Shown one piece after another: positions 37,358 to 55,567 of a stretch of DNA of 64,000 bases (the first letter of the stretch is position 1; every line of letters begins with the position of its first letter). The position numbers and the translations under genes are program-made. Origin of the DNA: Candidatus Latescibacterota bacterium (GTDB lineage: Bacteria; Latescibacterota; UBA2968; UBA8231); assembly GCA_965197905.1 (NCBI GenBank), contig CBDAOB010000005.1, positions 2,368,001-2,432,000 of the forward strand, written 5' to 3'. Under the pieces are notes generated by a model. That model was not told where the DNA came from. It ran no database searches and saw only the letters and a program-made list of their open reading frames with translations.

Positions 37358-38665
37358 CTACCGCTGCGTTCGATATACCTTCCTGGTTCCCACCTGGAGA
37401 AGTCGAACGAAGTGGTAACCGAACGTAAACACCATCCAAATGACCGCCATCTGAAACCCCAAACCCGGATAGCCCACGAGGGCACCGAGGGTGAAGATCA
37501 ACAAGGTGATATTTCTGCGGGCAGCGATCAGGTGGAAGCTGGCGTCCACGGGGCTGAAATCGAAAATCTCTTTCCCAACCAGGCGTTTGAAGCTGCCGCT
37601 GACGACCTTGTCGAGCGCGAAGACGGCTATGCCGGTGACTGTCCATAACAGTTCAGCACCAGACGCCGCGGATCCAACCGAGCCCAGATACCAACCGAAG
37701 GCGGCGTACCACAACGCCAAGCCGGGCGCTGCCACAATGTGTTCGATAGCGCCCATCCTGTCGCTTAATTGAAGCCGGAGCCGGGCGAGCTTGCCGTCTA
37801 TGGAGTCCAGCAGGACACCCATCCACGCCGAAGAGATTCCGGCAGCCAGATGACCGGTAGCAATACATGGAATAGCCCCCCAGATACCGAGGATGGACAT
37901 CGACGTCAGAAGATTGGGCGCAATGGAGGTAAAGCTCAACGGATAGGTGATGCACCGCACAAGGTGGTAATAGCCATATCGCGCAACCGCGTCGATGACC
38001 CCTTTGAAGGTGCGTCGGTACATTAGCCGACCCAGCGGAGCGAGATCCGCGGGTGAGAGGACGCGTTTCATCATCGGTTCCATGGTCAGCCTCAACGCCG
38101 GCACGTAGTGTCCGATGTCACGAGAGGCGATGGTCTCCAGTTCCTTCCCGGGCAGGATAAGTGGCACTCCAGTTGTTGCCGACGAATCATCGTTGACCTC
38201 GTCGATATCTCTGACGATCTGCTTTACCTGTCCGGCAGTCAGATAGGCTGCAGCCTCGGCGTTGCGGCCAATCACTCTGCACCCGGGACCGGACTGCAGC
38301 AGGTGAACCAGTACTCGATCGTCGTAGACCACGTCCCCCTCCAGCAGAACCACATCGTCCTCCATGTGACCAAGCTCCCGAGCCAACGCGGAAAGCGTCT
38401 CGACATCAACGACGATCAGATCGAGGCGGTAGAGATGGTGCAGGTCGCGACGCCACCTGCTCACCTCATGGGCGCTAAACTGGGAAACCCAAATGTGGAA
38501 CCGTTCAACGCCAAGGAGCGCCATTTCGCGAATCTGACGCTCCACGATGTTCATGCCCCAGAGTTGATACCCCGATGCCTTGCGCCTGGCGTCGATGCAG
38601 ACTATTAGCGGACGCTTTTTTTTCATCAAATCGGGAGAGAATTCTGGAGATTCTGATCCATTCAT
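37358..38665 (-). CDS. CDP-alcohol phosphotransferase-family protein with N-terminal degenerate nucleotidyltransferase-like domain
   Basis: IVERQIRE, LLEGDVVYD, APNLLT, LDSIDGKLAR. The second half of the CDP-AP motif is altered. Confidence 0.75.
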   Translation of the reverse strand: MNGSESPEFSPDLMKKKRPLIVCIDARRKASGYQLWGMNIVERQIREMALLGVERFHIWVSQFSAHEVSRWRRDLHHLYRLDLIVVDVETLSALARELGHMEDDVVLLEGDVVYDDRVLVHLLQSGPGCRVIGRNAEAAAYLTAGQVKQIVRDIDEVNDDSSATTGVPLILPGKELETIASRDIGHYVPALRLTMEPMMKRVLSPADLAPLGRLMYRRTFKGVIDAVARYGYYHLVRCITYPLSFTSIAPNLLTSMSILGIWGAIPCIATGHLAAGISSAWMGVLLDSIDGKLARLRLQLSDRMGAIEHIVAAPGLALWYAAFGWYLGSVGSAASGAELLWTVTGIAVFALDKVVSGSFKRLVGKEIFDFSPVDASFHLIAARRNITLLIFTLGALVGYPGLGFQMAVIWMVFTFGYHFVRLLQVGTRKVYRTQR

Positions 38666-38684
38666 ACGGCGGGTTGCAAACGAC

Positions 38685-39395
38685 TCATCGCAACAGAGGC
38701 AGCACCGTCCCCAGGGCCCGCTTGTAGTCGTCCAGAGAATCTATTTCGGTCCAGGGAAGATCCCCCGCTTCCACCGCGTGAAGACAGCTTGCTTCAATCA
38801 GCTTGCCGTACGCAGATGTGGGAAAGGCGTTTTCGTGACCGCTCTCGATCAACAACTCCACCTCCGACCGCAGCGAAGCAGCGCCCTGGGCATCGAATTT
38901 GGCCAGTTGCATACTCTGAGCCATCGCAACCGCTGGATCTAGTGATTTGCTGATCCTCGTAATGCGTTGTTTCGCGTCGGTAGTGACGTTCATCTCGTTC
39001 GCCGTCAGTTGCCTTCGCGAATCTACGGCTACGGCGTTGGCAAACGGGGCATCGAGCAAACGCCTGAGCACCGAATCGTGGAAGAGAATGTCGCAATTGA
39101 AAAGAAACAGGTCCGTGTTCAGCTCCTCGCGGGCTAGATACAGAGAATATATGCTATTGGTCGTCCTGAACTGGTCGTTTTCGACGTACCGCACGCAGGT
39201 CCCCAGGTGCTCCCTGACCTGAGGTGCTTGATACCCGATCACCAGCACGATGTCCTCGACGCCACAGCTGTGCAACGCGTCGATCTGGTGCTGAATGAGA
39301 GGTTTCTCCCCGGCGTTGACCAGGCATTTGGGAAGGTTGTTGGTAAGCGGATGAAGTCGTGAGCCGATTCCGGCGGCCAGAATAAGTGCCCGCAT
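38685..39395 (-). CDS. NTP transferase, phosphocholine/phosphonate cytidylyltransferase (LicC-like)
   Basis: ALILAAGIGSRL..LT..LPKCL, TNSIYSL, FNCDILF, WTEIDSLDD. Confidence 0.85.
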   Translation of the reverse strand: MRALILAAGIGSRLHPLTNNLPKCLVNAGEKPLIQHQIDALHSCGVEDIVLVIGYQAPQVREHLGTCVRYVENDQFRTTNSIYSLYLAREELNTDLFLFNCDILFHDSVLRRLLDAPFANAVAVDSRRQLTANEMNVTTDAKQRITRISKSLDPAVAMAQSMQLAKFDAQGAASLRSEVELLIESGHENAFPTSAYGKLIEASCLHAVEAGDLPWTEIDSLDDYKRALGTVLPLLR

Positions 39396-39441
39396 TACTC
39401 AGACCTCGAGATTCTTACCGCGTCCCTTGGGCGAGGCGCAG

Positions 39442-39609
39442 CTAGTGCCCTGTATCGGAAGTAGGCTTGTGAAATGAGGACACCGAGTCGCCCGGTCTGC
39501 AAGGCACGCGATCGAGGCGTATTGGTGAAATACGCCGAGTGAGCGTAACACGGCAGAGCGGGATGAATCGGCGAATTAATACAGGCATATTTTCGATACA
39601 GGGCACTAG
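39442..39609. repeat. 168-bp self-complementary element (MITE-like, or structured ncRNA)
   Basis: Terminal inverted repeats CTAGTGCCCTGTATCG / CGATACAGGGCACTAG (16 bp perfect, extending to 25 of 29), CTAG at both ends, further internal stems. Confidence 0.6.
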
Positions 39610-39631
39610 GTTCCGATATGCCAATAGTCTG

Positions 39632-39910
39632 CTAGGCGGAATATTCGGATAGAGAGCGTTCCAGCTCGGAAGGATCAACTTGCTCACCGCTGTTCAGACG
39701 TTCAATGACCGATTCGATCACTTCCTTTGCTGCGTCGGCAGTTTTGTCGCTGCGAATAAAACCATCGAAATAATGGTCACCCGTCATCGCCGCATCTATC
39801 TCTTGATCCTTGTTGTGGTCGTCGAGCTCGGTGAAATAGACCACATTGTAGCGCTGGTTGTAGGAGGACTCGCGGTACACCTCGAACATGATTTTGTCTA
39901 TTGCCGGCAT
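39632..39910 (-). CDS. small acidic hypothetical protein
   Basis: MPAIDKIMFEVYRE...VVYFTELDDHN...DGFI; fills the gap downstream of the activase gene. Confidence 0.7.
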   Translation of the reverse strand: MPAIDKIMFEVYRESSYNQRYNVVYFTELDDHNKDQEIDAAMTGDHYFDGFIRSDKTADAAKEVIESVIERLNSGEQVDPSELERSLSEYSA

Positions 39911-39990
39911 CAGAATATTCTCGCCCCGTTGGTTTTTTCGAACATAAGAAAGCTTGAGTCGATGGTCCAGTGAGAGAATGCCCCGCGTAC

Positions 39991-40028
39991 ATAGGAACGG
40001 CGTGCTCGCTTCGCACGCCGTTTCCTAT
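39991..40028. terminator. stem-loop downstream of the PlsA-like gene (putative terminator or stabiliser)
   Basis: ATAGGAACGGCGTGC-tcgcttc-GCACGCCGTTTCCTAT. Confidence 0.5.
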
Positions 40029-40051
40029 TAACAAGATGCAGCTTGGAATTC

Positions 40052-43000
40052 TTACGCGACGAGTTCGGGTTCTGCGTTGGATACTCCGACGCTCTCCATC
40101 ACGCCAGACTCGTACTCTTGGCGCAGCTCTCGCTCGAAGTCCGCCAACTGCTCCTCGACCTGGCTCCGGGTGTCGAGCTTGCGCACCAGGTCTTCCCGGT
40201 AACGGCGCAAGAAATAGTCGATCGTCTCAACCCTGATCCTGATCGACCCCGTCGGTCTGTTCTCGTCTACATCCTTGAAACAGAAATAAGGTGTCCCGGA
40301 ATTCTGCACGGTTTCTTCCACCACCGTGTAGATGGGAGCATCGTGACCGCATTTGAAGCTGGAAAGCTCCAGAGCGACCAAGTTCGGGTGTCGGGCAGTA
40401 AACTTCGCTGCCCACACCTTGCGGTTCGTATTCTCGCTGTAGGAGTTCTTCCACGCGTCGGCGATATCCAGCGGATGGTTGATCACCCCTTCCTCAACGT
40501 CCTCTCCGAACAGGCGCTGGAGGATGTCATCGTCGATGGGAAGGCTGTCCTGGGTCAACACCGGATAACCCAGCTTCTGGAACTCTGCCAGGATTTCGTG
40601 GCATGCCCCCGGGTCGTTGTGGTACGGGCGGGCCAGCAGCACGATGCCGATTCGTTTCTCCGATTCCAGTTGTTCGAGAATCTCGCGACCTTGACGGCGC
40701 TGGTCGGCGTTGTAGCGATCCAACGCTGCGTAACCTTCCTCTATGGCGCGCTCGTTTTCCTTCCTGGACACACCGAGAACGTGTTCAAATTGCTCGAACA
40801 TCTGACGTTCCAGCAATTGCGGCTCGCTCGGATTCACGAACGTGTCTATGAACTGGATACCCATCTCGGCGAAAAGGTCACCCTCTTTCGTGAAGGCCGC
40901 CTTCACTGCTGCCGGCGTCGTGGCAACGGTGGGACAGGCGCGACAATCCTGCGTACCTTTCAGATCAGTCGGCAGGCAGTCAATCATGGGGAAGAAGATG
41001 GCATCCAACGCCGATTTCTTGTGATGGGTGTGTATCAGATTGTGGACGTGCGGGATGCAGAGCTTCGACGGAAAACACGGATCCACCGAACCCCGCTTGG
41101 CTCCTTCCTTGTACATCTCCTCGGAGGTGAAGTCCGAATAGACGAGGTTCCTTCCCTTGACCCCGAGGCTCTCGAAATACGCGCTGAACAGCGGGTTTAA
41201 CGAATACATGTTGAGCACTTTGGGGATCCCGATGCGGATGCTCTCCCGATTTTTCATCTGTTCCACGCGCCGCTTTTGCGTTTTGTTGAGACTAAGCCGT
41301 GGCAATGGGTCGGCCACCTCCGCCGGTTTCATCGACCGAAAGACATCGGTGGCAGCCACCTCCTGAAGGTTCGGGTAGGAGCCCCGATTCTCGTCCATGC
41401 CTTTCTTGATCACCTTCATCGCTTCCACATCCTCCACCAGGCCCCGTTCGCATGAATTGCCGACAATGAGCCGCTTCGTCCCGTCTTCGATCGGAATCTT
41501 GGATTTTCGCGGCGGCTCGACGGCCTCGCTCGCGGATTTTACCTTCACGTCGATGAAGGAGCGCAGACATTTATTCTTGCAGAAGAAACATCTCGTATCC
41601 TCGCTGCGATGCGTCGTGTAGCCGATCTTGCTGACCTCATCCAGGCCGATGAAGGTTGACTCCCGCCCGTTCTCCCAGAGACGGACCGCCTCGATAGCGG
41701 CGCCAATCGCGCCGGATTCGCCGCAGTGTTCGTGAACGATGATCTTCGGTTCCACGTCCTTGGAGTTGAAGCGCGACTCAATGAAATCGACCTGTGACTT
41801 CACGGCGGCCATGTTCTTCTGGGTGCCACCTTGAAGCACGAAATTGGTGCCCAACGCCGCCAGGTTGGGGATCTGCGCCACGTAGAGCCAGATGTTTTTG
41901 GGCAATACGGCGGCGAGCCCCGCCATAATCTCTTCCGCTTTCCAACCCTGTCGCTGGAAATCGACGATATCCGACTGCATGAATACGGCGCAACCATAAC
42001 CGAAGATCGGCATCGTTTCGGCGGTAAACGCGGTATCGGCGTACTCTTCAACCGGAATACCGAATCCGCTCGCCGTCGATTGGAGGAAATAGCCGTTGCC
42101 GGCGGAACATTGGGTGTTGAGCTTGAAATCTTTAACCTGGCGATTCTTCAGGACGATGATTTTGATGTCCTGTCCTCCCACATCGCAAATAACATCGACG
42201 TCTTCGTAGAATTGCAGTGCCGATTCGGTGTGAGCCACCGTTTCCACCAGCGCAACGTCCGCGCTGAGCACGTCCCCAAGGATGTCCTTGGCGTAACCCG
42301 TAGTCCCGACGCCCGCCACTTCTAGCACGGCACCTGGTCCTTCCACCTGCTGTCGCAGTAGGTCGAGGACTTCCATCGTGTCTTCGATCGGATTGCCCTT
42401 GGAAAGCTGATATGTCTTCACAAGGACGTTCCGGTTTTCGTCGAGTAGCACCGCTTTCGTAGAGGTGGATCCACCGTCAAGACCGATAAAACCTTTTACC
42501 ACCTGACCCGGTTCAAAGGTGGCGGGGATGAACTTCTTCTCCTTGAACCGCTCTTTGAATTCCTCGAGCTCATCGGTCGACTTACTAAGGCCACTGCCTC
42601 CGGCCTTGGCCTTGTCCTCCAGGCGGCCGAACTCGATGTAATGTTCCAGTGCTTCGGTACCCTGGTACACGCCGACGTCGGCGTCTTCCTGCTTGCCGAA
42701 CTCGACGGCTCCGATCGCAGCAAAGTACTGAGCGTTGTCGGGCACCTTTATGAGTTCCTTGGGATCGACGCCCGCAGGCAGCGGATATTCTCGTTCCTCC
42801 CAAATCTTTGGAATGTTGTGCTTCCACGCTTCGACCATACCACGGATGTAGGTGTTGGGACCACCAAGTAGCAAGACATGCGGGCGCAGTGTATTACCCC
42901 GTGTCAGCACAGAAAGGTTTTGGCCGACGATAGCCTCGAAGAGAGAGGCCATTAGCTGGTCTGTAGGCACACCCATTTTTTGAAGCGAATTGACGTCCGT

Positions 43001-43546: not shown

Positions 43547-43568
43547 CGCTCGCTCCGGATCGGTTGCT

Positions 43569-45416
43569 TCAATTCTGATTGATTACGACAAGCTCTTTGT
43601 TGAGATCGTCAATCTTGGTCGTCGCCGAAGAGGTTGCATCCGCTTCGGCCGCCGAGCTCCGCTCGCGACCCATTAGTTGTGCGATATGCGCCGCGAAGTT
43701 GGCTGCCGTCCCTATGTGTCCCTTGGTGTGAGGCACGACGTACAACCCCTCTTTGAGCTCGGGATGTTCCTCGACATACGCTTCGATTTCAGAGGTCGAT
43801 ATCCCCCACTCATCCAAGGTCCGGGCAAACTCCCCTTTGCACTTGGTCTTGGCTTCGCCAAGAGCCATCTGAACGCGACTGTGGGCATTGATTTCGCCCT
43901 CACCCGAGGTCTCGATTGGCAGGTAGATGATATCCTTAAAATTGTTGATCACCGCTGACTGCGCCCCGTCAGATTGGGTGCTGGGCATGCAACCAAATGG
44001 TTTGAGCCCCAGGACCATATGGGCGAGATCCTTATTGTGGTAGTAGATATTCTTCGCCACCTCCATGTATCCCTCTCCCCCGCCGGCCTTGGTGCTGTAA
44101 AAGGGATCCCCAAGGCGCTGCAGCTCGTACTGATTGCACAAATCGTGGGGGACGTCGGACAGCGCCGTCCGCAGCCGTCGCCACTCGCGGCTGAAAAGCT
44201 TCTCTACCACGGTAAGGAGGACGAGAGGGCGGTAGTCTTTATAGAGACGTTTTGCCTTAGCCCCGAACTGCCACCAGTCCAATTTCTCCCGTAGTTCGTC
44301 GAGCCCGGCTCTATCCTCCATCTTGCGTTTCGACTGGCGAATGACATAGGTCAACCAGGTTCCGATCGGTTCGACCATCACCTGAGCTCCCTCGCGCTGA
44401 AGGAACTCGAACATGTTGAAGTTGCCGTCCCCTTCGGTGGTCTGGGCCCAGAACTCTCCGGTGATCTTAACTATCGGCTTCGGGCGCGTCCGATCGACCT
44501 CCACCTCGTTAAAGCGCGCGCCTGCACGCTGCAGAGCCTGCACGTAGTCCTCACCGAGCAACTGGCGATAAAACTGACCAGCTAGCTTGGCTTTACCCTG
44601 GATGCTTGGAAACTTGGCCAGAAACCTGGCCAATCTGCCGTCGGGAGCGTAAACCGCCCCCTTCTTGAGAACCTCGCGCATCTCTTCTACGCAATCTTTC
44701 AAAACGCGATCGGTATCCCCTTCGTTCACCTCGTAGGGGCGCAACTGGTAGGCAACGTCATTGAGTTGGTCACCGATACAAAAAGCGTTCAACAAACCCA
44801 GGAAGAATTCGGGATTCAGCTCGAGCCCGGCTTCCAACTCGGATTGAGAAAGTCCACCCGTTTGCGAGAACAGCAGGACCCTGAATCCATCGAAACCCGA
44901 ATTGCGCAAAGCCAAGCGGTACTCAGCCTCGTACATACCGAAGCGACAGGGCCCGCAGGCGCCAGCGGTCAGGAACACGTAGTTGTCGATTATCTGCTCG
45001 CGGCTTTCACCATTTCTTTCCAACCCCTGGAGGTATTGAACAAGATTTCCGACGGTGAAATAGGTCGGATTGCACTGGCCGTTGTTGCCATATTCCTTCC
45101 CCAACTGGAAAGCCTCCACGTCGGCCGTAGGAATATTCATGGCCTTGTACCCTAACCCTTCGAGCACTCCGTGGATGAGGCGCTCGTGTTTCCAGGTCAA
45201 ACCACCGTAGAGAATGGTGGTGTGATGCCGCTGGTCTTTGGTGAAAAACCGTTCCTCAGGTTTGGCAAAGTGTTTCCGCTCTTCCTCTTCCAAACCTAGT
45301 TCGGCTTCCAACGAAGCGCGTTTTTCCGCCAGCTTTTCTTGGATCTGCTTTTCCACGCTGCCTGGGTTCGCTGTCGCCGGATTTGCGACATCCAATTTTT
45401 GTTCCATCAAGCTCAC
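43569..45416 (-). CDS. 2-hydroxyacyl-CoA dehydratase-like Fe-S subunit, PlsR-like
   Basis: GKEYGNNGQCNP, GACGPCRFGMY, ITGEFW, GGEG, KPFGCMP. GTG 45416 follows AGGAGGT. Confidence 0.8.
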   Translation of the reverse strand: MSLMEQKLDVANPATANPGSVEKQIQEKLAEKRASLEAELGLEEEERKHFAKPEERFFTKDQRHHTTILYGGLTWKHERLIHGVLEGLGYKAMNIPTADVEAFQLGKEYGNNGQCNPTYFTVGNLVQYLQGLERNGESREQIIDNYVFLTAGACGPCRFGMYEAEYRLALRNSGFDGFRVLLFSQTGGLSQSELEAGLELNPEFFLGLLNAFCIGDQLNDVAYQLRPYEVNEGDTDRVLKDCVEEMREVLKKGAVYAPDGRLARFLAKFPSIQGKAKLAGQFYRQLLGEDYVQALQRAGARFNEVEVDRTRPKPIVKITGEFWAQTTEGDGNFNMFEFLQREGAQVMVEPIGTWLTYVIRQSKRKMEDRAGLDELREKLDWWQFGAKAKRLYKDYRPLVLLTVVEKLFSREWRRLRTALSDVPHDLCNQYELQRLGDPFYSTKAGGGEGYMEVAKNIYYHNKDLAHMVLGLKPFGCMPSTQSDGAQSAVINNFKDIIYLPIETSGEGEINAHSRVQMALGEAKTKCKGEFARTLDEWGISTSEIEAYVEEHPELKEGLYVVPHTKGHIGTAANFAAHIAQLMGRERSSAAEADATSSATTKIDDLNKELVVINQN

Positions 45417-45479: not shown

Positions 45480-45499
45480 TAGACTGACATGTCAGTCTA
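45480..45499. promoter_or_regulatory. perfect 20-bp palindrome, probable TetR operator
   Basis: TAGACTGACATGTCAGTCTA between the TetR gene and the PlsR-like start. Confidence 0.7.
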
Positions 45500-45603: not shown

Positions 45604-46242
45604 TTAGAAGATTCTCAGAGTAAGCAGGCCCTGCATTCCGAATTTGAATAATTCATCCAAAATTGCATCAATCCCGATCGAGCCGTCCTCATCCGTGGAA
45701 ATCAAGTATATGATCTCCTTGACTGAGCCGAGCACGCAGCGAGCCGCAATCTGCGGCTCGCAGTCCCGTACCAAACCTAGGCTCGTACCATGTTTGATAG
45801 CGGCTTCGATCCGCTCCAAGAGTATGTCGTAGAATTCGTCCAACTTCTGGTCAAAATCGGTGTCCAGGCCGCCGGCTCGATTGAGCAATATTTGAGTCTG
45901 GCCCTTGTCCTCGAGAGCCAGCTCGATCAGCGCACGAAGTATTCGCTTGAGCTGCTCGAGGGGTGGTGGTTCGCCCTCCTGCAGACTGATCGGCTGGATA
46001 ATCTGCTCTAGCCGTGCCAGAAGGTGATCTAGAATACTCTCGAAGACGTCGCGTTTGTTCTCGAAATACAGATAAAACGTACCCCTGGCGATGCCTGCCC
46101 TTTGAATGATGTCGGAAATCTTCGCCCGATGATACCCTTTCTCCGAAAACACCTCCTTGGCATGACGGAGCACGATCTCTTTGCGTTCTTCCTTTGTTAA
46201 CACCAACTCAATCCCCTGGAGAGCAGTCTCGCGTGTAGGCAC
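45604..46242 (-). CDS. TetR/AcrR family transcriptional regulator
   Basis: AKEVFSEKGYHRAKISDIIQRAGIARGTFYLYFENK. The true start may be GTG 46203. Confidence 0.92.
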   Translation of the reverse strand: MPTRETALQGIELVLTKEERKEIVLRHAKEVFSEKGYHRAKISDIIQRAGIARGTFYLYFENKRDVFESILDHLLARLEQIIQPISLQEGEPPPLEQLKRILRALIELALEDKGQTQILLNRAGGLDTDFDQKLDEFYDILLERIEAAIKHGTSLGLVRDCEPQIAARCVLGSVKEIIYLISTDEDGSIGIDAILDELFKFGMQGLLTLRIF

Positions 46243-46624: not shown

Positions 46625-47395
46625 TTGTTGAGACTTGCTGCTAAAGCAGTGATTCTGGTTGCAGGCAGAGGTCGTCGACTCCTGCCGCGTACGCAGTCGT
46701 GCCCGAAGTGCCTTCTTCCCATCGGCGAAAGTACGATTCTCGAGCATCAGTTACTGAACCTCTACAACGTGGGCTTCGAAGAGGTGGTCCTCGTGTGTGG
46801 GTTCGGAGCCGACAAGATCCGCCGGGCTGCCGCCGAGTTCGGCGGGGCCATGAATATCGAGATCGTCGTGAATGAACATTTTGCCGTCGGCGACAATCTG
46901 ATATCTCTGTGGGCTGCGCGTCACACCTTGGATGGCAGTTTCGTGTTGCTTAACGGCGACAACCTGTTCCACCCGAGTATCCTGGAAGGCCTGACCAGGT
47001 CGCAGGATCCCTGCTGTCTGATGATCAGTCGGAAAGACTGTTACGACGATGACGACATGAAAGTCCACATGGAGGGAAGTCGGATCGTGAGGATAGGCAA
47101 GGAACTCGATCCTCACACTACCGACGCCGAATCCATCGGAATAATGCGGTTTGCGTCCGACGCAGTTGATGAACTCAAGGAACGACTGGAAGGGATCATC
47201 TCAGGCGACCACGAAACCGACTGCTGCTATCTCACCGCGGTGCAAGCAATGATAAACACCGGTTACCCGGTCAACTTTCGCGATGCAGAAGACCTGCCCT
47301 GGGCAGATGTCGATACCTTTGAAGACTTGAGTTTTGCCAGGACGCACATGCCCATGTTTTCCCAGTCGACAAGGAACCGGCTCGAACCGGTATAG
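46625..47395 (+). CDS. NTP transferase, phosphocholine/inositol-phosphate cytidylyltransferase-like
   Basis: AVILVAGRGRRL..PKCL, DNLISLW, LLNGDNLF, YDDDDMKV, AESIG, WADVDTFEDL. Confidence 0.85.
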   Translation: MLRLAAKAVILVAGRGRRLLPRTQSCPKCLLPIGESTILEHQLLNLYNVGFEEVVLVCGFGADKIRRAAAEFGGAMNIEIVVNEHFAVGDNLISLWAARHTLDGSFVLLNGDNLFHPSILEGLTRSQDPCCLMISRKDCYDDDDMKVHMEGSRIVRIGKELDPHTTDAESIGIMRFASDAVDELKERLEGIISGDHETDCCYLTAVQAMINTGYPVNFRDAEDLPWADVDTFEDLSFARTHMPMFSQSTRNRLEPV

Positions 47396-47403
47396 GCTCG
47401 CCT

Positions 47404-48813
47404 ATGGTGAAGAAAGGCGTTCTCGTTTTCGAGAACACGGGAGCCGGGTTGAGAGCCATGAAACAGCGAGTCGCCGGCTTGACGCTTCTGGAGCGCGGCA
47501 TTCGGACGATGGCCAGGGCTGGCCTCCGATCGATCGTCGTGCTTTGTCCGTCAGGGGGACAGACCAAGCTCAGTCCGGTGACCCGAAAGTTGGAGATCGA
47601 GATCGATTTCGTTGCCTGGGAATCCCCTGAGGACGCCATGGATTCTTCGGAAGGTCATCTTCTCCTTTGGGGGGACCACGTGCACCATCACTCCTCGCTG
47701 TGCGAATTGATGGAAACGGAACTCGGTCCGCACGAGTTGATCGTCCATGCCGGACAAACGCACCAAGCTGTAAACCTGCCGGTCGGTTTGGACCAACTCC
47801 AGAGAGGGGCTGATACAGCTGCTGAAGACGGTTTGGCGAGCACCGGCGCTTTTCTTTGTGCAGCCGGGGTTCTCACTCCCGGCGCCATCTCATCCAGATG
47901 CTGCGACTTGGAAGCCCTCATTAGGCAGGGTATCGACGGGTTGCGATTCGAACTGCGCCGGTCGGAGCAGGAACTCTGGCGCCGGGTGGTCGATCGGTCG
48001 AGCAGTCGCAGCGCCAAGAACATGCTGTTCAGCCAAGTGACCAAATCTACGAGCGGGTTCGTATCGCGCAATATCAATGCCCGCATCTCTATCCCTACTA
48101 GCAAACTGCTGGTCGAGACCGGACTCTCTCCCCATGCAGTGACCGTCCTGTTCGTGCTCACGACCGGTTTGGCGGCAGCGTATTTTGTCACCTTGGCGGA
48201 AGATTACAAGATGCTGCTTCTTTCCGGTGTGTTGTGGCAGTTCGCCGCCATCTTCGATCGTTGCGACGGCGAGATTGCCAGAGTTCGCCTCTGCGAATCC
48301 AAATTTGGCGCCTGGTTCGATACCGTGACGGACAACATTGCTTATATCGCAGCCTATGTAGGACTACTGATCGGCGTACAGCGCCTCTACCCCGACCATC
48401 ACTACTACATGGGGCTGGGAGTTTCTGCCGTGATCGCCCTGTTCCTCTATCTTGGCGTGGCTTACAGGTACGCGCTAAAAACGGGCTCCGGGAGTTTGCA
48501 ACATTACTTGAGGGACTCTATCCAGAACGTGCCGGCGGACGAGAAGATTTTCGTTTACAAGATCATGGAGAGGTACGGATTTATCGCCAAGCGCGACTTC
48601 TTCTCATTCTTCTTTTTTATCACCGCCGCAACGAATATGATTCAAGCAACCTACTGGTTCGTGATCATTGGCCAACATCTCCTGGTGGTGGCGGTTCTCG
48701 TTTCGCAGCGGAAGGTCCATGAGACCTACCAGCGCAATCGCATTGCCAAAGACGACGGCGTTCCGGCTCTCGAGCCGGTGCCGATCACGCCCGGATCTGA
48801 GAAGGCGCGATGA
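47404..48813 (+). CDS. CDP-alcohol phosphotransferase with N-terminal degenerate nucleotidyltransferase-like domain
   Basis: VAGLTLLERGIR, GFVSRNINARIS, SPHAVT, intact DRCDGEIAR....SKFGAWFDTVTD. Confidence 0.88.
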   Translation: MVKKGVLVFENTGAGLRAMKQRVAGLTLLERGIRTMARAGLRSIVVLCPSGGQTKLSPVTRKLEIEIDFVAWESPEDAMDSSEGHLLLWGDHVHHHSSLCELMETELGPHELIVHAGQTHQAVNLPVGLDQLQRGADTAAEDGLASTGAFLCAAGVLTPGAISSRCCDLEALIRQGIDGLRFELRRSEQELWRRVVDRSSSRSAKNMLFSQVTKSTSGFVSRNINARISIPTSKLLVETGLSPHAVTVLFVLTTGLAAAYFVTLAEDYKMLLLSGVLWQFAAIFDRCDGEIARVRLCESKFGAWFDTVTDNIAYIAAYVGLLIGVQRLYPDHHYYMGLGVSAVIALFLYLGVAYRYALKTGSGSLQHYLRDSIQNVPADEKIFVYKIMERYGFIAKRDFFSFFFFITAATNMIQATYWFVIIGQHLLVVAVLVSQRKVHETYQRNRIAKDDGVPALEPVPITPGSEKAR

Positions 48814-49871
48814 AGTTTTTCAAGCTGGTCATGCCGGGCTTGGGGCTATTGTTCCTGGGGTATCTGATCGGCAAGCTCGGACCGGACGAAATTCTGCGCA
48901 ACTTCGTTCTCATGAAGTGGTCGTTTCCACTCGTCCTCCTTCTCGCCGGTTCCTGGCACGTAACCAATTCGTTGGCGTGGAGCTTCGCCTTTCCGCCAGG
49001 TGCGTTTCGTCCGCGCTTTCGGATGCTGATCATGGCAAAACTCGCCGGGGACGCGGTCAACCAGCTGACGCCGCTTGCCAACATCGGCGGCGAACCGCTC
49101 AAGGCGTACCTGCTCAAACACGAGTCTCCAACCTCCCGGGGGCTTGCATCCGTGGTGATCAACAAGACCGCCCAGATAATGACCGGGCTTCTATTCACCA
49201 CGGTTGGGCTCGGATTGGTCGTAATCCACAATCTTCAGGCGCCCTACGCAATTCCCCTTCCATTGCGTGTGGGCTTCGCGTTACTGCTGATGCTAGGCGC
49301 GGGCCTTATGTGGCTGTTCTTCATGAAACAGCAACACATGTTTTCTTCTTTGCTCAACCTCCTTCGACGGGTCGGAGTAAACACGCGACTTCTGGAAAGC
49401 AGAATGGCCAAAGCCGCTAATATTGACGACAACATCAAACGTTTCTACCGCGACTACAAAGGACGCTTCTTTCTGGTCCTGTTGTTCCACGCCATGGGTT
49501 GGCTGCTCGGCGCCTGCGAGACATTCGTCATCCTGAAAACCCTCGTTCCCAGCACCGGTTTTCAGGTCGCCTTTCTCATCACCGCTCTCACCGTCGTGAT
49601 CAACAGCCTGTTCTTCTTTATGCCGTCGAATATCGGCGTCCTCGAAGGTGGCCAGGTCTTCCTGTTCCTGACGCTCGGGCTTAGCCCGACGATGGGCCTT
49701 TCCCTGGGCATCGTGAAACGCATGCGCAAGATATTTTGGATTTTCCTCGGCTGGCTTTTCCTAACGCGCATGAGCCGGGGCGTGTTGGAGGCGAACATTC
49801 TGGAAAAAAGTCGCGCCTCGGCGGCATTTGATTCTGCTATGGAACAGAGCAATCGCTTGAATTATCCCTGA
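48810..49871 (+). CDS. lysylphosphatidylglycerol-synthase-TM / flippase-like membrane protein
   Basis: AGDAVNQLTPLANIGGEPLK, FMPSNIGVLEGG, KRMRKIFW; multiple TM helices. Confidence 0.82.
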   Translation: MKFFKLVMPGLGLLFLGYLIGKLGPDEILRNFVLMKWSFPLVLLLAGSWHVTNSLAWSFAFPPGAFRPRFRMLIMAKLAGDAVNQLTPLANIGGEPLKAYLLKHESPTSRGLASVVINKTAQIMTGLLFTTVGLGLVVIHNLQAPYAIPLPLRVGFALLLMLGAGLMWLFFMKQQHMFSSLLNLLRRVGVNTRLLESRMAKAANIDDNIKRFYRDYKGRFFLVLLFHAMGWLLGACETFVILKTLVPSTGFQVAFLITALTVVINSLFFFMPSNIGVLEGGQVFLFLTLGLSPTMGLSLGIVKRMRKIFWIFLGWLFLTRMSRGVLEANILEKSRASAAFDSAMEQSNRLNYP

Positions 49872-49873
49872 CG

Positions 49874-51220
49874 ATGCACAAAGTCACGATTGTTCTCTAT
49901 TGTGCTGCCGCAGGCGTACTCTGCGCAAGCCCATCCCAATCCCAATCATCAATCCACAGGTATAGCCTTTCGGAACTCATCGAAAGAGCGACGAGTCACA
50001 ATTCCGAGATCGGGGAAGCGAAGTGGCGGCTCCGCAAGGCCGAAGCCCGGCAAAGACAGGCGTCGGCAAGCCGGATTTTGCCTCGGCTGCGGCTGTCCAG
50101 CGAAACGGGACTCGTACCGGAAGCGGAAGGTGACATCTTTAATCCACCATCCGATACGACCGGGGTCAGACCCCTTGGCCCTTTCGTGCGAGCAGAGCTC
50201 GAATTCGCCCAACCGATCTATGCATTTGGCAAGTTTGGCAACCTCATACGAGCCGTAGAAGCAGGGGTGGCGGTGGAGGAGGCCGCATTTGATGAGACTT
50301 CGCTGGCTGTAGCGTTCGAAACCAAAGAGTTGTACTACAGCCTTTTGTTGGCGCTCGATTTGCAAGATCTGGTCGATGGTCTGATCGACCAGCTCGAGGA
50401 AAGACGGCTGGAGTTCGAGGACAATCCAGATGTCACCCTCGCCAATGAGTACAAGCTGCGCCTGGCCCTCGTCGAGCTCAAACATCAGGCCGCAGAAGCC
50501 GGAGCCAACGCGGATCTCGCCCGCGCCGCTCTGGCGTGGAAGGTGGGTGTGGCAAAGGCCGATTCGCTGCAACTGGCGGATGAGTGGCTTGAACCGGAGG
50601 TTCCTATTGTGCCGTCTTTGAATGACCTGGTGTCTCAAGCGTTGGCCACGCGTCCCGATTGGCGCAGATTACAGGCCGGCATGAACGCCAAGAGAGCCCT
50701 GCGCAACGCCGCACAAAATGCCTATTTCCCCGAGATCTTTGTGGGGGGCGGCATTCGTTATGCCGTCGCTCCGCATCGAACCGACCAGCACAGCCCATTC
50801 GTCGTGGACAATTTCAATTACTTCAATGGGGGGGTTTTCCTGGGGCTCCGGCAGTCTTTCGAATGGGCGATGTTGCGCGGCGAGTTGGACCAAGCGCGGG
50901 CGGAGTATCGCGAATTGGTGGAAAAGGAAAGAGGAGCCAGCCAAGGCGTCAGGGTCGACGTCAAACGCGCCTACTCCCGATACACGATAGCCGAGACCGG
51001 ATTCGAGGTCGCCCGGGAGCGACGCAAGCTCACCCGCGAGTGGTTGCGACTCGCAAAGGAGGAGCAGGAATTCGACCCCGGGCAGGTGAAGGAACTGGTA
51101 ACCGCTTACGAGGCGTGGGCTCAGCAGGAACGGGATTACCTGGAGGCGATTTACGCCTTCAACATAAACCTGGCAAAACTCGAGAAAACGGTGGGCGGCA
51201 CCAGCCTGGTCAAACGATGA
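49874..51220 (+). CDS. TolC-family outer membrane protein
   Basis: Signal peptide; ILPRL, QPIYAFGK, ALATRPDW, YFPEI, YAFNINLAKLEKTVG. Confidence 0.85.
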   Translation: MHKVTIVLYCAAAGVLCASPSQSQSSIHRYSLSELIERATSHNSEIGEAKWRLRKAEARQRQASASRILPRLRLSSETGLVPEAEGDIFNPPSDTTGVRPLGPFVRAELEFAQPIYAFGKFGNLIRAVEAGVAVEEAAFDETSLAVAFETKELYYSLLLALDLQDLVDGLIDQLEERRLEFEDNPDVTLANEYKLRLALVELKHQAAEAGANADLARAALAWKVGVAKADSLQLADEWLEPEVPIVPSLNDLVSQALATRPDWRRLQAGMNAKRALRNAAQNAYFPEIFVGGGIRYAVAPHRTDQHSPFVVDNFNYFNGGVFLGLRQSFEWAMLRGELDQARAEYRELVEKERGASQGVRVDVKRAYSRYTIAETGFEVARERRKLTREWLRLAKEEQEFDPGQVKELVTAYEAWAQQERDYLEAIYAFNINLAKLEKTVGGTSLVKR

Positions 51221-52560
51221 GTGTGGCGATTGCGATTCTGACCATCATCCTCGCGCTGATGGGGACGGCGGAGATCCGGGGACAGCAGCAGCTAGCGGTC
51301 GAGGGAGAGAGTTTTCTCCTCCGGGAAGTCCGCCTGCTAAATGGGCACCTCGAAGCTCCAAAGGAGAATCTGCGCCAGGATCTGGTCGCCATGGCTGACG
51401 GTCTGATCGACTATCAGCACCTTACCGATGCAAGCTTCGACGGGTACTGCGAGTCGAGCCTGAGCAGCTATCGCAACACCAAAGGCGAGAGCGAGCTGGA
51501 GATCCTGATCGGCAACTGCCAAAAAGAGCTGTCAGCGGCATATCGCAACCGCCTCCTCGCTGATTTCGCCCGATTCGTTCGTTACAATCTGGGAGGCGCG
51601 ATCCAGATACTGGCGTGCGACTTGCGTAGCGATTCGGGGATCGTGCAGGCCAAGCTCAGCTCCTCCCACGGCGAGTTCGATTTGGAGATCGCGCTCCGCC
51701 GCAGCGGTGATCTGTGGACCATCGGCGATCTGTCCATAGACAAAACCCTGCTCAGCAAACATTATCGAAAGCTCGGAAAATCCGTAGAGAAGAAGAACTA
51801 TTCGCTGCCGGTCATGCTGGCCAGACTGGAAGACCGGAACCACATCGTCCTGGAGGATTTTTCGTCCAGCTCGGTTGGCGAGCTGCCAACAGGATGGGGA
51901 TGGCGAGATCGGGATGACAACAAACCGAAGCCTTACAAGGTGGGCGCCTCCAAGGACCGTCATTTCCTCGCCGCAAAAGACTCCGGTGGATCGGTCATCC
52001 TGCTGAAATTTGCGCACTGGAATCCTCGTGAGTTCCCCATACTGACCTGGTGCTGGAGGGTCAATGCCTTGCCCCCGGGTGGAGATGAGCGCTACGACAA
52101 CACCAACGACAGCGCGGCGGGTCTATACGTCAACTTCTCCACAAACTGGATCGGTTTACCGAAGTACATCAAGTACGTCTGGAGCAGCACGCTGCCCGTC
52201 GGTACGGTAAACCGTCGCAACCGGATCGCGCGCCCGTGGTTCTTCGTCGTCGAGAGCGGGGAAGACAACCTCGGCCAATGGATCTTCGAAAAAACCGACC
52301 TCTCAAGGGACTACCAGCGGATCTATTCAGAGCACCCCCCGAAGCGCACGATCGGCCTTGGCATTCTTACAGACGCGAACTCTACGGCGTCGGTGGCCCA
52401 CGCAGATTACGCCGATTTCCGCGCCTGGACGCGCGAAGCCGATGTCGATGGCTCCATCTACGATCACTGCAAGTGTGATTCTGGAGGAAGGTCAACCTTG
52501 GAACACCGCGATTACCGCGACGACGTATCCCTAGTAACAAAGGAGGAGAGGGAATGGTAA
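51217..52560 (+). CDS. secreted MlaC-like + DUF3047-like fusion protein
   Basis: ATGA overlap with the TolC stop. N-half GLIDYQHL...WTIGDLSIDKTLLSKHYR is MlaC-like. C-half LEDFS..PTGW, FPILTWCWRV, DSAAGLYV, KYVWSSTLPVG, VVESG, ILTDANST is DUF3047-like. Confidence 0.7.
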   Translation: MSVAIAILTIILALMGTAEIRGQQQLAVEGESFLLREVRLLNGHLEAPKENLRQDLVAMADGLIDYQHLTDASFDGYCESSLSSYRNTKGESELEILIGNCQKELSAAYRNRLLADFARFVRYNLGGAIQILACDLRSDSGIVQAKLSSSHGEFDLEIALRRSGDLWTIGDLSIDKTLLSKHYRKLGKSVEKKNYSLPVMLARLEDRNHIVLEDFSSSSVGELPTGWGWRDRDDNKPKPYKVGASKDRHFLAAKDSGGSVILLKFAHWNPREFPILTWCWRVNALPPGGDERYDNTNDSAAGLYVNFSTNWIGLPKYIKYVWSSTLPVGTVNRRNRIARPWFFVVESGEDNLGQWIFEKTDLSRDYQRIYSEHPPKRTIGLGILTDANSTASVAHADYADFRAWTREADVDGSIYDHCKCDSGGRSTLEHRDYRDDVSLVTKEEREW

Positions 52561-53174
52561 CACCCCTCTGGATCGCCTCCGCGCTTTGTCTTTGTTACAT
52601 GTCTCCCATCGAGACTCGGGCCGAGGAACCGATCGTGAATTCGCCCATACACGTCCTCAAAGAACACGATCGGGCGGTGCAGGCTATCCTCGACAGCACC
52701 GGTGGAGACTCGTTGAATTTAGCGGTGCGCCAAAGAATCAAGAATCACATCAATGCCACCTTCGATTTTAAGGAGCTGAGCAAACTGTCACTGGGCCCAC
52801 ACTGGATGGAACGCAGTTCGGCGGAACAGCAGCACTTCGTGTCCGTTTTTAGCGGGATCATTCAAGAGCAGAACTTTGAAAGTTTCCTGCGCTACTATCG
52901 CGAGAGCGAGATCTCCTATCACGACGAACGGATTGACAGCACTTTCGCCACCGTAAACGCTCTCGTGCCGCTGAAAGCCGAGCAGGTCGAAATCACCTAC
53001 CATCTTCATCGCGTCGACGGAGAGTGGAGGGTATACGACCTGTTGATCGATGGTTCCAGCACCGCTGCTGGACACCGGCGAAGACACATTCGCTACATTG
53101 CCAAGTACTCCTATGAACGACTCGTCGAACAGCTGGAGAAACAGTTGGCAAGACAAACGGGCGGCAACAGCTGA
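52554..53174 (+). CDS. MlaC/Ttg2D-family lipid-binding periplasmic protein
   Basis: FDFKELSKLSLGPHW...QQHFVSVF...EITY.LH...WRVYDLLIDG. Confidence 0.85.
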   Translation: MVTPLWIASALCLCYMSPIETRAEEPIVNSPIHVLKEHDRAVQAILDSTGGDSLNLAVRQRIKNHINATFDFKELSKLSLGPHWMERSSAEQQHFVSVFSGIIQEQNFESFLRYYRESEISYHDERIDSTFATVNALVPLKAEQVEITYHLHRVDGEWRVYDLLIDGSSTAAGHRRRHIRYIAKYSYERLVEQLEKQLARQTGGNS

Positions 53175-53182
53175 ATCCATCG

Positions 53183-55567
53183 ATGCGATTTAGTTATCAA
53201 CGGCTGGTTCACTACATATACCACCACTATCTCAGCATAATTGGAGTCGCAACCTTGCTGACCTTGGTTGCAGTCTATTTTGCCGGACAGCTCCGCGTCA
53301 AAAGCAACATCGTAAACTTGCTGCCCGCCGACCACGTAAGCGTCAGCGAGCTGACCAAAATACAGGAACGCGTCGGAGGCATCGGACCGTTGATGATCGT
53401 TATCACCGGAGACGATATCGACAAGTCGTTGGACTTCATGCTTGCCCTTGCGGACTCGTTGGAACACAACGCCTACATCAGCTCCGTCAGCCGTGGCAAG
53501 GATACGCAATTTTGGAGCAAGAACCGGCTGCTATATATGGACATGGAGGACCTGGAGACCATTCACTCTAGGGTTGCATATTTCATAGAGGAAGAAAAGG
53601 TCCGCCGCTCACCCCTGTACTTTGCCTTCGAAGACGAAGAAGAGAACGTGCTGGATTTTTCCGACCTGGAAGAGAAGTACCAGGGAACGGGCACCTCAAA
53701 GCGGCAGGACAACTATTATCTCACGAAAGAGGGAAACGGGGTCATTCTTAGACTTTACCCCGGCGGAATCATCACCGACGTCTCGTTTAATCAGCTGCTT
53801 TTCGAAAGCCTCGACCGGACCATCGCAGCCATCGAGCCGAAAAGCTATCACCCCAGCATCGAATACCGCTACAAGGGAAGCTTCAAGAACAGTTCGTACG
53901 AATACAAGCTGGTTATTGACGATCTGAAGTCGACGGCGGTTTACGGATTGCTGGGGGTTCTGGTTCTCATATCGGTCTACTTTCGCCAGGTTTTTGCTTC
54001 CCTCTTCATCGTCTTTCCGTTGCTGATGGGCGTTGCGTGGACCTTCGGCCTCACCTACCTGGTCATCGAAAATCTGAATCTCGTTACGGTCGGATTGTTC
54101 GCCATACTATTCGGGTTGGGCATCGACTTCGGGATTCACATCTTCGCCCGCTACCGCGAGGCACGCCGCCGGGGCGTCGACATTGAAGCAGCGCTGAGCT
54201 TGACGGTTGTCCACACCGGAAGCACGCTTACCACAACGGCCATAACGACTTCGGGCGCTTTTTTCTCGCTAATGGTAACCGAGTTCAAAGGATTCTCCGA
54301 ATTCGGTTTCATCGTGGGTTGCGGGATACTCTTTTCTCTCGCGGCCATGTTGGTCGTATGTCCCGCCTTCATCATACTCGCCGAGCGTCTCCGAGTCATC
54401 AAATTGAGCCAGAGCAACGTTCCGGCACACCTGTTCAGGCGCGGCAAATATCCGTTCGCACAACTGACCGTATTGTTGGCCGCAATCGCCACCGGCTATT
54501 CGATATACCACGTGTCCAGCCTCGAGTTCGAGTACGATTTCAGCAAGCTGAAACCTGCCAAACCCGTGCAAGAGCCAGGAAGTCTGCCGGAATCGTTGAA
54601 GGAAACTCGGTCGCCGGCTATCGTGCTGACGGAGAGTTTTGAGGAAGCTTCGGAAGTGGTTGCAACCGTGAAGAAAATCAAGGCCATCAACGGAGATTCT
54701 TCGACGGTCAGCTCGGTGAGGAGCGTCTATTCCGCGCTGCCCAGACGCCAGCCGGAGAAACTCGATCTCATCGATCGGATAGAGACGCTAATCGACGAAT
54801 CCCAGAAGTATCTGGATCAAGTCCAGAAGGACAAGGTCGACTCGCTGAGCCCGTACCTGGAGGTAACACAGCTCGAGCTCAGCGACCTCCCGGAGGACAT
54901 TACCAAACAGTTCTCCAGCAAAAATGGCGAACTTCTTGATATCGTCATGATCAACTCCGCCGTGCCTCTGAAAGACGGCCGCCAGGCTATACGTTTTGCC
55001 GAGGAGGTGAAGAAGATCAACACCCCCTCCGGCAGGGTGTATCACGCATCGAGCGCCCACATAATCTTCGCCGAGATGCTGGAGATCATGCTCGATGACA
55101 GCGCTGTAGCGATCGTGCTCACGTTATTGGTCGTTTCGCTGGTATTGTTCATAGATCTGAGAAACCTTACGCAAACCCTTCTCGTTCTTACGCCGCTGCT
55201 CACAGCCTTGGTGCTGATTACCGGATTCATGTATCTGTTCGACATAAAGTTGAATCTGTACAACATGGTAGCCTTTCCGACAGTCATCGGCATGGGTATC
55301 GACAACGGGGTCCATATTTTTCACAGATACCGGGAAGAAGGAGCGGGTTCGTTGCGTCTCGTCCTTAGAACCACGGGTGTGGCCTTGCTGGCCACAACCA
55401 TGACGACGATGGTCGGATTCTCCGGTCTGATTCCCGCAAATCACCCTGCTCTGCCTTCGATCGGTATACTCTCGCTCATCGGCCTTGGATGCTGTTTCGT
55501 AACGGCCGTTACGCTGCTGCCTGCACTGTTGCAACTACGCGAGAACCGCAACCGTCCACGCGAATAA
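53183..55567 (+). CDS. MMPL/RND-family lipid transporter (HpnN-like)
   Basis: 1+5 / 1+5 TM layout; ILFGLGIDFGIH..RYRE, FKGFSEFG, IGMGIDNGVH..HRYRE. Confidence 0.9.
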   Translation: MRFSYQRLVHYIYHHYLSIIGVATLLTLVAVYFAGQLRVKSNIVNLLPADHVSVSELTKIQERVGGIGPLMIVITGDDIDKSLDFMLALADSLEHNAYISSVSRGKDTQFWSKNRLLYMDMEDLETIHSRVAYFIEEEKVRRSPLYFAFEDEEENVLDFSDLEEKYQGTGTSKRQDNYYLTKEGNGVILRLYPGGIITDVSFNQLLFESLDRTIAAIEPKSYHPSIEYRYKGSFKNSSYEYKLVIDDLKSTAVYGLLGVLVLISVYFRQVFASLFIVFPLLMGVAWTFGLTYLVIENLNLVTVGLFAILFGLGIDFGIHIFARYREARRRGVDIEAALSLTVVHTGSTLTTTAITTSGAFFSLMVTEFKGFSEFGFIVGCGILFSLAAMLVVCPAFIILAERLRVIKLSQSNVPAHLFRRGKYPFAQLTVLLAAIATGYSIYHVSSLEFEYDFSKLKPAKPVQEPGSLPESLKETRSPAIVLTESFEEASEVVATVKKIKAINGDSSTVSSVRSVYSALPRRQPEKLDLIDRIETLIDESQKYLDQVQKDKVDSLSPYLEVTQLELSDLPEDITKQFSSKNGELLDIVMINSAVPLKDGRQAIRFAEEVKKINTPSGRVYHASSAHIIFAEMLEIMLDDSAVAIVLTLLVVSLVLFIDLRNLTQTLLVLTPLLTALVLITGFMYLFDIKLNLYNMVAFPTVIGMGIDNGVHIFHRYREEGAGSLRLVLRTTGVALLATTMTTMVGFSGLIPANHPALPSIGILSLIGLGCCFVTAVTLLPALLQLRENRNRPRE

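Follow-up and report, generated by a model that had tools for sequence, protein, structure and literature searches.

A plsR–plsA cassette beside a family-wide putative head-group and export operon in Latescibacterota: a probable composite of two units

We analysed a 64,000-nucleotide stretch (the window) of contig C5 of a Candidatus Latescibacterota genome, here termed G000. It carries a cassette of tetR, plsR and plsA genes between two modules of an NTP-transferase and a CDP-alcohol phosphotransferase (CDP-AP) gene, the right one of which runs on into genes for a flippase-like protein, TolC, an MlaC-DUF3047 fusion, MlaC and an MMPL transporter (Table 1). The region probably combines two units that differ in their history, rather than being one co-evolved supercluster, since the units are unequally distributed among relatives, none of 13 comparable junctions in other genomes holds an intact plsR–plsA pair, the two are unlinked in another plsA-bearing genome (G021) and the pair has been lost from a genome of the same genus (G001).

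A first-pass annotation, made from the letters of the window, had described an integrated ether-lipid synthesis, head-group and export supercluster. Scanning of 57 window open reading frames (ORFs) with Pfam and NCBIfam models recovered every gene that it named in its place and family, including the PlsR/PlsA-like pair with its TetR gene, the NTP-transferase/CDP-AP module on each side and the tight packing of the right operon, whose seven genes are spaced by −7 to +8 bases; the reported absence from the window of squalene-hopene cyclase (SHC), serine palmitoyltransferase (SPT), inositol-phosphate synthase (MIPS) and phosphoenolpyruvate (PEP) mutase likewise holds for these ORFs. It had overlooked a 92-aa ORF, a 20-bp palindrome and the lost last aspartate of the left CDP-AP. 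The claim of integration was not supported, the blocks being unlinked in most relatives.

Distribution and linkage of the two units

Family counts refer to 76 genomes of one Latescibacterota family, a smaller set of relatives comprises 41 genomes, and the genus of the window is sampled by three (G000, G001 and G002). A plsA-like gene was present in four genomes (4/76 of the family, 4/41 of the relatives), namely G000, G002, G021 (65%) and G023, the last carrying a distant type (33% over about 320 residues). It is linked to the operon only in two genomes, both of the window genus; in G021, contig C20 carries plsR–plsA and contig C101 the operon. In contrast, the right CDP-AP gene was found in 75 of the 76 family genomes, the single miss being a 58% complete genome, and the MMPL gene in 38 of the 41 relatives. 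The surroundings of MMPL were retrieved for all 21 family genomes with an MMPL match, 19 of which were tallied for operon completeness: the seven-gene operon was complete in 14, and plsR or plsA was present in none. Among the other five loci, one lacked CDP-AP at the locus, one extended from TolC to MMPL only and three were cut short or held MMPL alone. G008 has a distant MMPL with no operon around it, and in one further family of the class (G030, G028 and G026; loci L129, L134 and L137) the MMPL orthologue has a VTT/DedA-domain gene upstream and no operon.

The slot occupied by the cassette could be followed in 13 other genomes that show both NTP-transferases. It contained no gene in seven, a Wzx-type flippase gene with or without a GT4 gene in five and a relic of the cassette in one; an intact plsR–plsA pair was found in none of the 13. 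The relic, in G001, consists of a tetR gene with frameshifts and a stop, the preserved palindrome and then directly the 3′ part of the small ORF, about 5.5 kb including plsR and plsA being gone, with both modules and the operon intact. The Wzx-type slot gene of the relatives is present elsewhere in G000 (C3:1112677-1114269). In the slot of G017, a GINT1_N-domain protein (L113:4171-5868, −) is encoded beside Wzx and GT4 genes; GINT1_N is the N-terminal domain of a plant inositolphosphoceramide glycosyltransferase, a weak hint at glycosylated inositol lipids.

The neighbourhoods of plsA elsewhere were surveyed in the best 75 loci of 479 related stretches from genome collections; omission of one locus with a 98% identical PlsA (L033) left 74 other loci, 32 of which show at least 8 kb on either side. 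Scored with profiles built in this analysis, none of the 74 contained NTP-transferase, CDP-AP, TolC, DUF3047 or MlaC matches, and one gave a weak MMPL match (24 bits). At E 1e-20, MMPL was also absent from three Poribacteria and two other PlsA-bearing Latescibacterota genomes (0/5; PlsA control 5/5).

The arrangement in the window is not an assembly artefact, because G002 shows the same gene order across the locus and contigs of two public runs, either of which may be the source sample, bridge the junction from plsR–tetR to the right NTP-transferase side. An RNA run (X1; word share 0.06) gave five short near-identical contigs inside plsA/plsR but did not cover the right operon to any real extent; it is evidence neither for nor against transcription. 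A promoter and terminator scan returned counts at chance level (5 versus 8.6; 23 versus 21.1).

Table 1. Features of the locus, with positions in the window
Feature	Positions	Strand	Remarks
Left CDP-AP-like protein	37358..38665	-	PF01066 weak; D3 = E, D4 lost; ancestral host gene
Left NTP-transferase, LicC-like cytidylyltransferase	38685..39395	-	PF12804/PF00483; best PDB LicC 1jyk, E 2e-22; ancestral host gene
Non-coding multicopy element, 168 bp	39442..39609	.	Polymorphic insertion, outside the system
Small conserved ORF, 92 aa, last gene of the cassette	39632..39910	-	No Pfam match
PlsA/Ger-like activase-reductase, 1164 aa	40052..43546	-	2x PF01869 (BcrAD_BadFG) + PF09989 (DUF2229); TIGR00241 over cut-off
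PlsR-like reductase/dehydratase subunit	43569..45416	-	Probable GTG start at 45416 behind AGGAGG site
Perfect 20-bp palindrome, probable TetR operator	45480..45499	.	Upstream of plsR
TetR-family regulator	45604..46242	-	PF00440; best NCBIfam model Bacillus-type FadR, below cut-off
Right NTP-transferase, LicC/IPCT-type fold	46625..47395	+	Opens the conserved operon; homologues named phosphocholine cytidylyltransferase family
Right CDP-AP	47404..48813	+	Complete motif; degenerate N-terminal cytidylyltransferase-like domain
LPG_synthase_TM flippase-like/HpnL-like membrane protein	48810..49871	+	PF03706; TIGR00374 over cut-off
TolC-family outer-membrane protein	49874..51220	+	PF02321, two stretches
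Periplasmic MlaC-fold + DUF3047 fusion	51217..52560	+	hhalign, Foldseek, structure model
MlaC/HpnM-like periplasmic lipid shuttle	52554..53174	+	PF05494
MMPL/HAE3-type RND transporter	53183..55567	+	PF03176; HpnN, BstA and HAE3 models all below cut-off

Outside these features, a tRNA-Gly(GCC) gene (55665-55740, −) directly follows the MMPL gene, and a di-haem cytochrome c gene (36604-37344, +), part of the conserved family backbone, lies between a uvrA-like gene and the left module. The 168-bp element has nine further full-length copies in G000 (75-97%), is missing from a contig of run X3 that joins across its site and looks like a miniature inverted-repeat transposable element.

The plsR–plsA cassette

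PlsA has the BBD architecture of two activase domains and DUF2229, and eleven of its cysteines (Cys138/177/480/519, 653/656/660/699 and 824/871/1066) are kept in 97-100% of 69 aligned rows; the activase cysteines align with those of HadI, and the PDB matches are HadI/HgdC/BCR activators. The partner PlsR gave no Pfam match and no PDB sequence match. Its structure model (pLDDT 80) weakly resembles the HadBC dehydratase/benzoyl-CoA reductase fold (best E 6e-4, TM 0.3-0.5), 2-hydroxyisocaproyl-CoA dehydratase subunits being among the structures resembled, and Cys114/153/156/475 are invariant in 62 rows. PF09989 also matched in two control genomes, those of T. maritima and L. lactis. In the literature, PlsA/PlsR and Ger are described as reducers of ester to ether lipids (PMC12838417, PMC8788747), every alkyl-ether producer examined has the conserved BBD core (PMC13159169), and PlsAR homologues are proposed as ether-bond makers in Solibacter (PMC10087280, section 4.4). 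The gene pair as such is not new, since BBD-type Ger matches, together with elbD and agps, have already been reported in sponge Latescibacterota metagenome-assembled genomes (bioRxiv 10.64898/2026.06.23.733905). By analogy with these enzymes, the cassette pair would turn ester-linked lipids into ether lipids when oxygen is low; it weighs against this assignment that Ger homologues occur in strains without ether lipids (PMC13159169) and that PlsA and Ger are not assignable from sequence (PMC13274423).

The composition of the cassette recurs widely, with plsR upstream of plsA in 65 of the 74 other loci and the 92-aa ORF behind plsA in 33, from several phyla. An Atlas search with this ORF returned only hypothetical clusters, with scores of 0.79-0.81, below 0.9; its product is a candidate accessory subunit or regulator of the PlsAR clade. 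The palindrome is a single site in G000, even with up to three mismatches allowed, and thus there is no evident TetR site at either head-group module. It is conserved in G002, in the G001 relic and, with one or two changes, in three Poribacteria cassettes that also share the TetR gene (52-60% identical) and the small ORF, and whose PlsA proteins are the nearest outside the genus among the loci listed (81-82% identity). In quick maximum-likelihood trees, the window PlsA is sister to these three proteins (SH-aLRT 95), and monophyly of the six Latescibacterota PlsA proteins tested is rejected by an approximately unbiased (AU) test (p 0.0003). This pattern suggests that the cassette was probably exchanged horizontally with Poribacteria, in either direction. 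Three observations weaken the case for such an exchange: the AU test against a clade of the window and G021 proteins was borderline (p 0.036), the tree contains long branches, and GC and third-position GC (GC3) contents showed no clear difference between cassette and flanks, so that composition gives no sign of recent transfer.

Elsewhere among the 74 loci, a Tes-like radical SAM gene was found in 12 and squalene-synthase-type genes in 15. In fifteen loci of Ignavibacteria/Bacteroidota (L068-L092), plsR–plsA immediately follows a pair of squalene/phytoene-synthase genes and a gene of the amine-oxidase family, an hpnCDE-like trio. Two Poribacteria loci (L034 and L039) have a set of SUF genes for Fe-S assembly behind the cassette, fitting an Fe-S enzyme.

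The putative head-group and export operon and its possible product

The motif of the right CDP-AP is complete (D285, D288, G289, R293, G302, D306 and D310) and present in all family rows, and its nearest PDB structures are AF2299 and IPCT/DIPPS. The N-terminal domain of the same protein is a degenerate cytidylyltransferase, which in other families of the class is intact and IPCT-like; the NF041135 model for the intact domain scored 66-87 bits in the window proteins and 255-259 bits in the fused relatives of the class (cut-off 580). In the window as in 7 of 7 orthologues, the left CDP-AP is without its last catalytic aspartate and lacks the complete motif; it is probably a partner or a non-canonical enzyme. 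The left and right modules belong to one pathway, because both CDP-AP types are fused in a 934-aa protein of G030 (L310:106-2910, −) that joins an IPCT-like domain, a right-type CDP-AP, a degenerate NTP domain and a left-type CDP-AP. The right NTP-transferase may resemble Caulobacter CpgD.

A survey of CDP-AP neighbourhoods covered the best 80 loci of 527 metagenome stretches. An NTP-transferase was encoded in 47 of these, and about 23 held genes for an outer-membrane barrel and a LolA-like protein, with the flippase-like domain often fused to CDP-AP; one locus has a distant PlsA-like gene. Because the attached transport genes vary among these loci, the stable core is the triad of NTP-transferase, flippase-like protein and CDP-AP, joined to differing envelope transport genes by lineage. 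The operon that recurs in L220-L274 (for example L273:4335-11672) comprises barrel, LolA-like, NTP-transferase, flippase-like::CDP-AP and endonuclease/exonuclease/phosphatase genes and appears to be a second route by which this kind of lipid is exported.

Among the export proteins, the MlaC-DUF3047 call of the first-pass annotation was borne out by a real N-terminal MlaC domain (hhalign probability 97.6; Foldseek E 6e-8 to MlaC/Ttg2D), and the stand-alone MlaC is matched by PF05494. The DUF3047 part was modelled as a beta sandwich matching CBM16, CBM28, gingipain adhesin and CFAP20-type domains; DUF3047 appears in one paper of the literature searched. MMPL retains both GxGxD proton-relay motifs (about 317 and 709). 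Scores for HpnL, HpnM and HpnN were all under the cut-off (139/196, 56/160 and 305/752 bits, respectively), and the transport of hopanoids, which had been cited as established for all three, is so for HpnN, with HpnL and HpnM listed as of unknown function (PMC12324291). No description of an NTP/CDP-AP-flippase-TolC-MlaC-MMPL operon, or of a system combining all the parts of the region, was found in the literature searched, which covered few subscription journals, in agreement with the earlier annotation.

To narrow down the lipid, candidate synthases were counted across the family. SHC exceeded the cut-off in 0 of 76 genomes, with one broken match below it, and the control set also had no genome over the cut-off; SPT was found in 0 of 76 with the CFB-type model, the one run across the family; and G000 encodes two alpha-oxoamine synthases, identified as Kbl and BioF from their scores and gene neighbours. 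The operon has no tie to synthases of hopanoids or sphingolipids, with 0/76 genomes over the cut-off for each model run, and a self-made hopanoid or ceramide is largely refuted as the product. PEP mutase was over the cut-off in 0 of 3 genus genomes, on which ground a phosphonolipid product was dropped.

Genes for ether lipids are present apart from the cassette: AGPS (matching the mammalian enzyme at E 3e-152) and an FAR/ElbD-like fatty acyl reductase (FAR) each occur in 72 of 76 family genomes, unlinked to the locus, the reductase in many of them as part of an ElbD-like FAR-AMP-binding-acyltransferase protein of about 1400 aa. In G000 the two genes are C5:2298563-2300389 (AGPS; L280) and C5:2028896-2030560 (FAR; L275). 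An exported ether phospholipid with an unusual head group, as first proposed, stays plausible through these genes, whereas its dependence on the cassette does not stand; against the ether core itself, the FAR of G000 stands alone, without the AMP-binding and acyltransferase domains of ElbD.

MIPS is encoded in 74 of 76 family genomes, in G000 on another contig than the operon, and lies beside CDP-AP in 1 of the best 80 metagenome loci; G000 also carries PgsA, PssA and a separate PIP-synthase-like gene. With the ether genes, MIPS would allow a Rhodothermus-type route from CDP-inositol and alkylglycerol (cited second-hand in PMC4587543 and PMC9246714). An inositol head is not specifically supported, because MIPS is unlinked and the PIP-synthase-like gene, which could use its product, can account for its presence; also against it, both NTP-transferases match LicC better than IPCT in the PDB search. 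A co-loss test did not discriminate (MIPS 5/5, fused NTP-CDP-AP 4/5). LicC-like enzymes can take unexpected alcohols, as in Caulobacter CpgD (PMC11324152, PMC13228409). We hold an inositol-type head group to be a tentative possibility, give another phospho-alcohol an even chance and think it unlikely that the product is not a lipid.

Alternative readings, known relatives and significance

Several observations would favour one regulated pathway dedicated to an ether phospholipid in the genus, uniting PlsAR, both modules and the exporter; the orientation of the cassette and the L273 contig also count against the composite reading. Gene order is conserved in G000 and G002; the cassette is co-oriented with and upstream of the left NTP/CDP-AP pair, in the Wzx position of the relatives, and some coupling is possible; an unrelated contig (L273, 1/80) has plsR–plsA 2.7 kb behind an NTP/flippase/CDP-AP operon; genes of the PlsA clade are often neighbours of lipid genes; an LPG_synthase_TM gene follows the small ORF in 3/74 PlsA loci, all of them Poribacteria (3/3); and the fusion in G030 ties the two modules together. 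The composite reading is further weakened by the modularity of the operon itself, as the head-group genes lie apart from TolC-MMPL in 3/3 genomes examined of the largest genus (31 genomes) and TolC, MlaC and MMPL accompany CDP-AP in only 3 of the best 80 metagenome loci; by the descent of the core genes within one family, which makes their co-occurrence shared rather than independent evidence; and by the fact that all enzyme substrates, like products, transport direction and regulation, are inferred from the gene content, linkage, deletion, operator conservation, folds and motifs observed. Against a dedicated pathway, however, plsA is missing from 72 of 76 family genomes, nearly all of which have CDP-AP, and is deleted in G001; the blocks are unlinked in G021 and none of the 74 other PlsA loci carries operon genes; the operator lies only upstream of plsR, and transcription of the right operon leads away from the cassette. 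We consider such a pathway quite unlikely and favour the composite of two units.

Other readings concern the function of either unit. The modules might decorate a surface glycan with a phospho-substituent or produce a compatible solute of the DIP type, with MMPL-MlaC-TolC moving an unrelated lipid: IPCT/DIPPS, a solute synthase, is among the nearest solved relatives, Wzx-type flippase and GT4 genes adjoin the modules in 5/13 junctions and in G028, and the head-group genes are separated from the export genes in G014, G061 and G063. Translational coupling across all seven genes, the placing of CDP-AP with TolC on one side and MlaC-MMPL on the other in 9 of the 12 loci retrieved from other families of the class and the triad beside barrel and LolA-like genes, which points to an envelope lipid, make this improbable. 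It is doubtful that the PlsAR-like pair is instead a soluble BCR/HAD-family enzyme that reduces or dehydrates acyl-CoA and is controlled by a FadR-like regulator. Its solved homologues are all CoA-ester enzymes, no transmembrane segment is predicted in the pair, the best TetR model is FadR-like (below cut-off) and Ger homologues do not always accompany ether lipids (PMC13159169), but the BBD architecture is found in all alkyl-ether producers examined (PMC13159169) and the neighbours of the PlsA clade across phyla are lipid genes. Export of hopanoids, sterols or sphingolipids by the Hpn-like block would agree with the best NCBIfam matches (HpnL, HpnM, HpnN and BstA) and with the Caulobacter NTP-transferase/CDP-AP pair that serves ceramide head groups (PMC11324152, PMC13228409); it is very improbable given that all four scores are under their cut-offs and that SHC, SPT and alpha-oxoamine synthase results were as reported above, although these tests do not bear on uptake of host sterols.

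Under the composite reading, the ancestral, family-wide unit would consist of divergent cytidylyltransferase and CDP-AP modules followed by the flippase-like, TolC, MlaC-DUF3047, MlaC and MMPL genes. The cytidylyltransferase would charge a phosphorylated alcohol with CTP (a polyol or cyclitol such as inositol-1-phosphate, or a choline- or glycerate-type alcohol), and the right CDP-AP would pass the activated group to diradylglycerol in a Kennedy-type reaction, much as IPCT/BEPIS of Rhodothermus does with dialkyl ethers. An ether made through the unlinked AGPS and FAR/ElbD-like genes may form the core of the lipid. The product would be taken over the inner membrane by the proton-driven MMPL together with the flippase-like protein; MlaC and the MlaC-CBM-like fusion would ferry it through the periplasm, the CBM-like domain reading a polar or glycosylated head, and the TolC-like protein would form the outer-membrane end of the route. 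The second, accessory unit would be the self-regulated tetR-operator-plsR-plsA-small ORF cassette, exchanged horizontally with Poribacteria, which may have entered the variable NTP-transferase slot in the ancestor of the genus and been lost again in one of the three sampled species. Driven by ATP, its enzyme would pass electrons between [4Fe-4S] clusters and so convert sn-1 acyl esters of finished phospholipids to ethers at low oxygen; it would draw on the lipid pool at large and would not be a step dedicated to the first unit. Some coupling may remain, as PlsAR-type enzymes act on finished lipids and the exported lipid could be partly etherified in G000 and G002; this would be an accessory effect, because G001 and the other plsA-less family genomes do without it. 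Carried to its most specific form, which is speculative and unlikely, the proposal is an ether-linked phospho-polyol outer-membrane lipid, possibly a glycosylated phosphoinositol, built on AGPS/ElbD alkylglycerols, carried by an MMPL-MlaC-MlaC::CBM-like-TolC route with DUF3047 as head-group reader, to which one genus added PlsAR as a low-oxygen supply of ether cores.

Each part has known relatives. The pair resembles PlsA/PlsR of Clostridium perfringens (CPE1194-1195) and Ger of Thermotoga maritima (Tmari_0479) and Desulfatibacillum alkenivorans in its BBD architecture, conserved cysteines and separate HAD/BCR-fold partner (PMC13159169); unlike in these, the partner gene lies upstream, both proteins are longer, the partner lacks a Pfam HGD-D match, and TetR, operator and 92-aa ORF are added. 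Acidobacteriota PlsAR homologues (window PlsA 67-82% identical) often adjoin a Tes-like gene, of which G000 has none at E 1e-20; the accessible parts of the Solibacter paper (PMC10087280) and the sponge preprint (10.64898/2026.06.23.733905) do not mention the window neighbourhood. The cytidylyltransferases and CDP-APs belong to the same structural family as Rhodothermus marinus IPCT/BEPIS and A. fulgidus IPCT/DIPPS and AF2299, and an LPG-synthase-like gene also adjoins the alternative inositol-lipid cluster of Bacteroides vulgatus (PMC9246714); in contrast to these systems, the window operon lacks MIPS, has NTP-transferases nearer LicC and adds a second, degenerate CDP-AP and a linked TolC-MlaC-MMPL exporter. 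An RND/MMPL pump, an MlaC-like shuttle and an LPG-synthase-like membrane protein are shared with HpnN/HpnM/HpnL and BstA (PMC12324291), whereas a TolC-like protein and the MlaC-DUF3047 fusion replace the MlaA-like HpnS and lipocalin HpnT, and no SHC exceeded the cut-off. The Caulobacter ceramide-phosphoglycerate genes also pair a LicC-like cytidylyltransferase with CDP-AP for an outer-membrane lipid (PMC13228409, PMC11324152), but transport there proceeds via Lpt paralogues, and no SPT was found in the window genome. ElbD-like proteins and AGPS recall Myxococcus ElbD and MXAN_1676 (PMC9131029), except that the ether genes of the family are unlinked to the locus and G000 has the FAR-only form.

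Taken together, the supercluster should not be treated as one unit, and the conserved operon is its more interesting part: MMPL-MlaC-TolC genes with head-group enzymes and no detectable hopanoid or sphingolipid synthase point to a candidate outer-membrane lipid and to a putative route for it from the inner to the outer membrane, and the operon context gives DUF3047 a testable role. With a regulator and a conserved operator of its own, the compact cassette offers a clean construct for testing the widespread PlsAR clade proposed for the ether bonds of brGDGTs (branched glycerol dialkyl glycerol tetraethers); it is also relevant to the question of which bacteria associated with sponges produce ether lipids.

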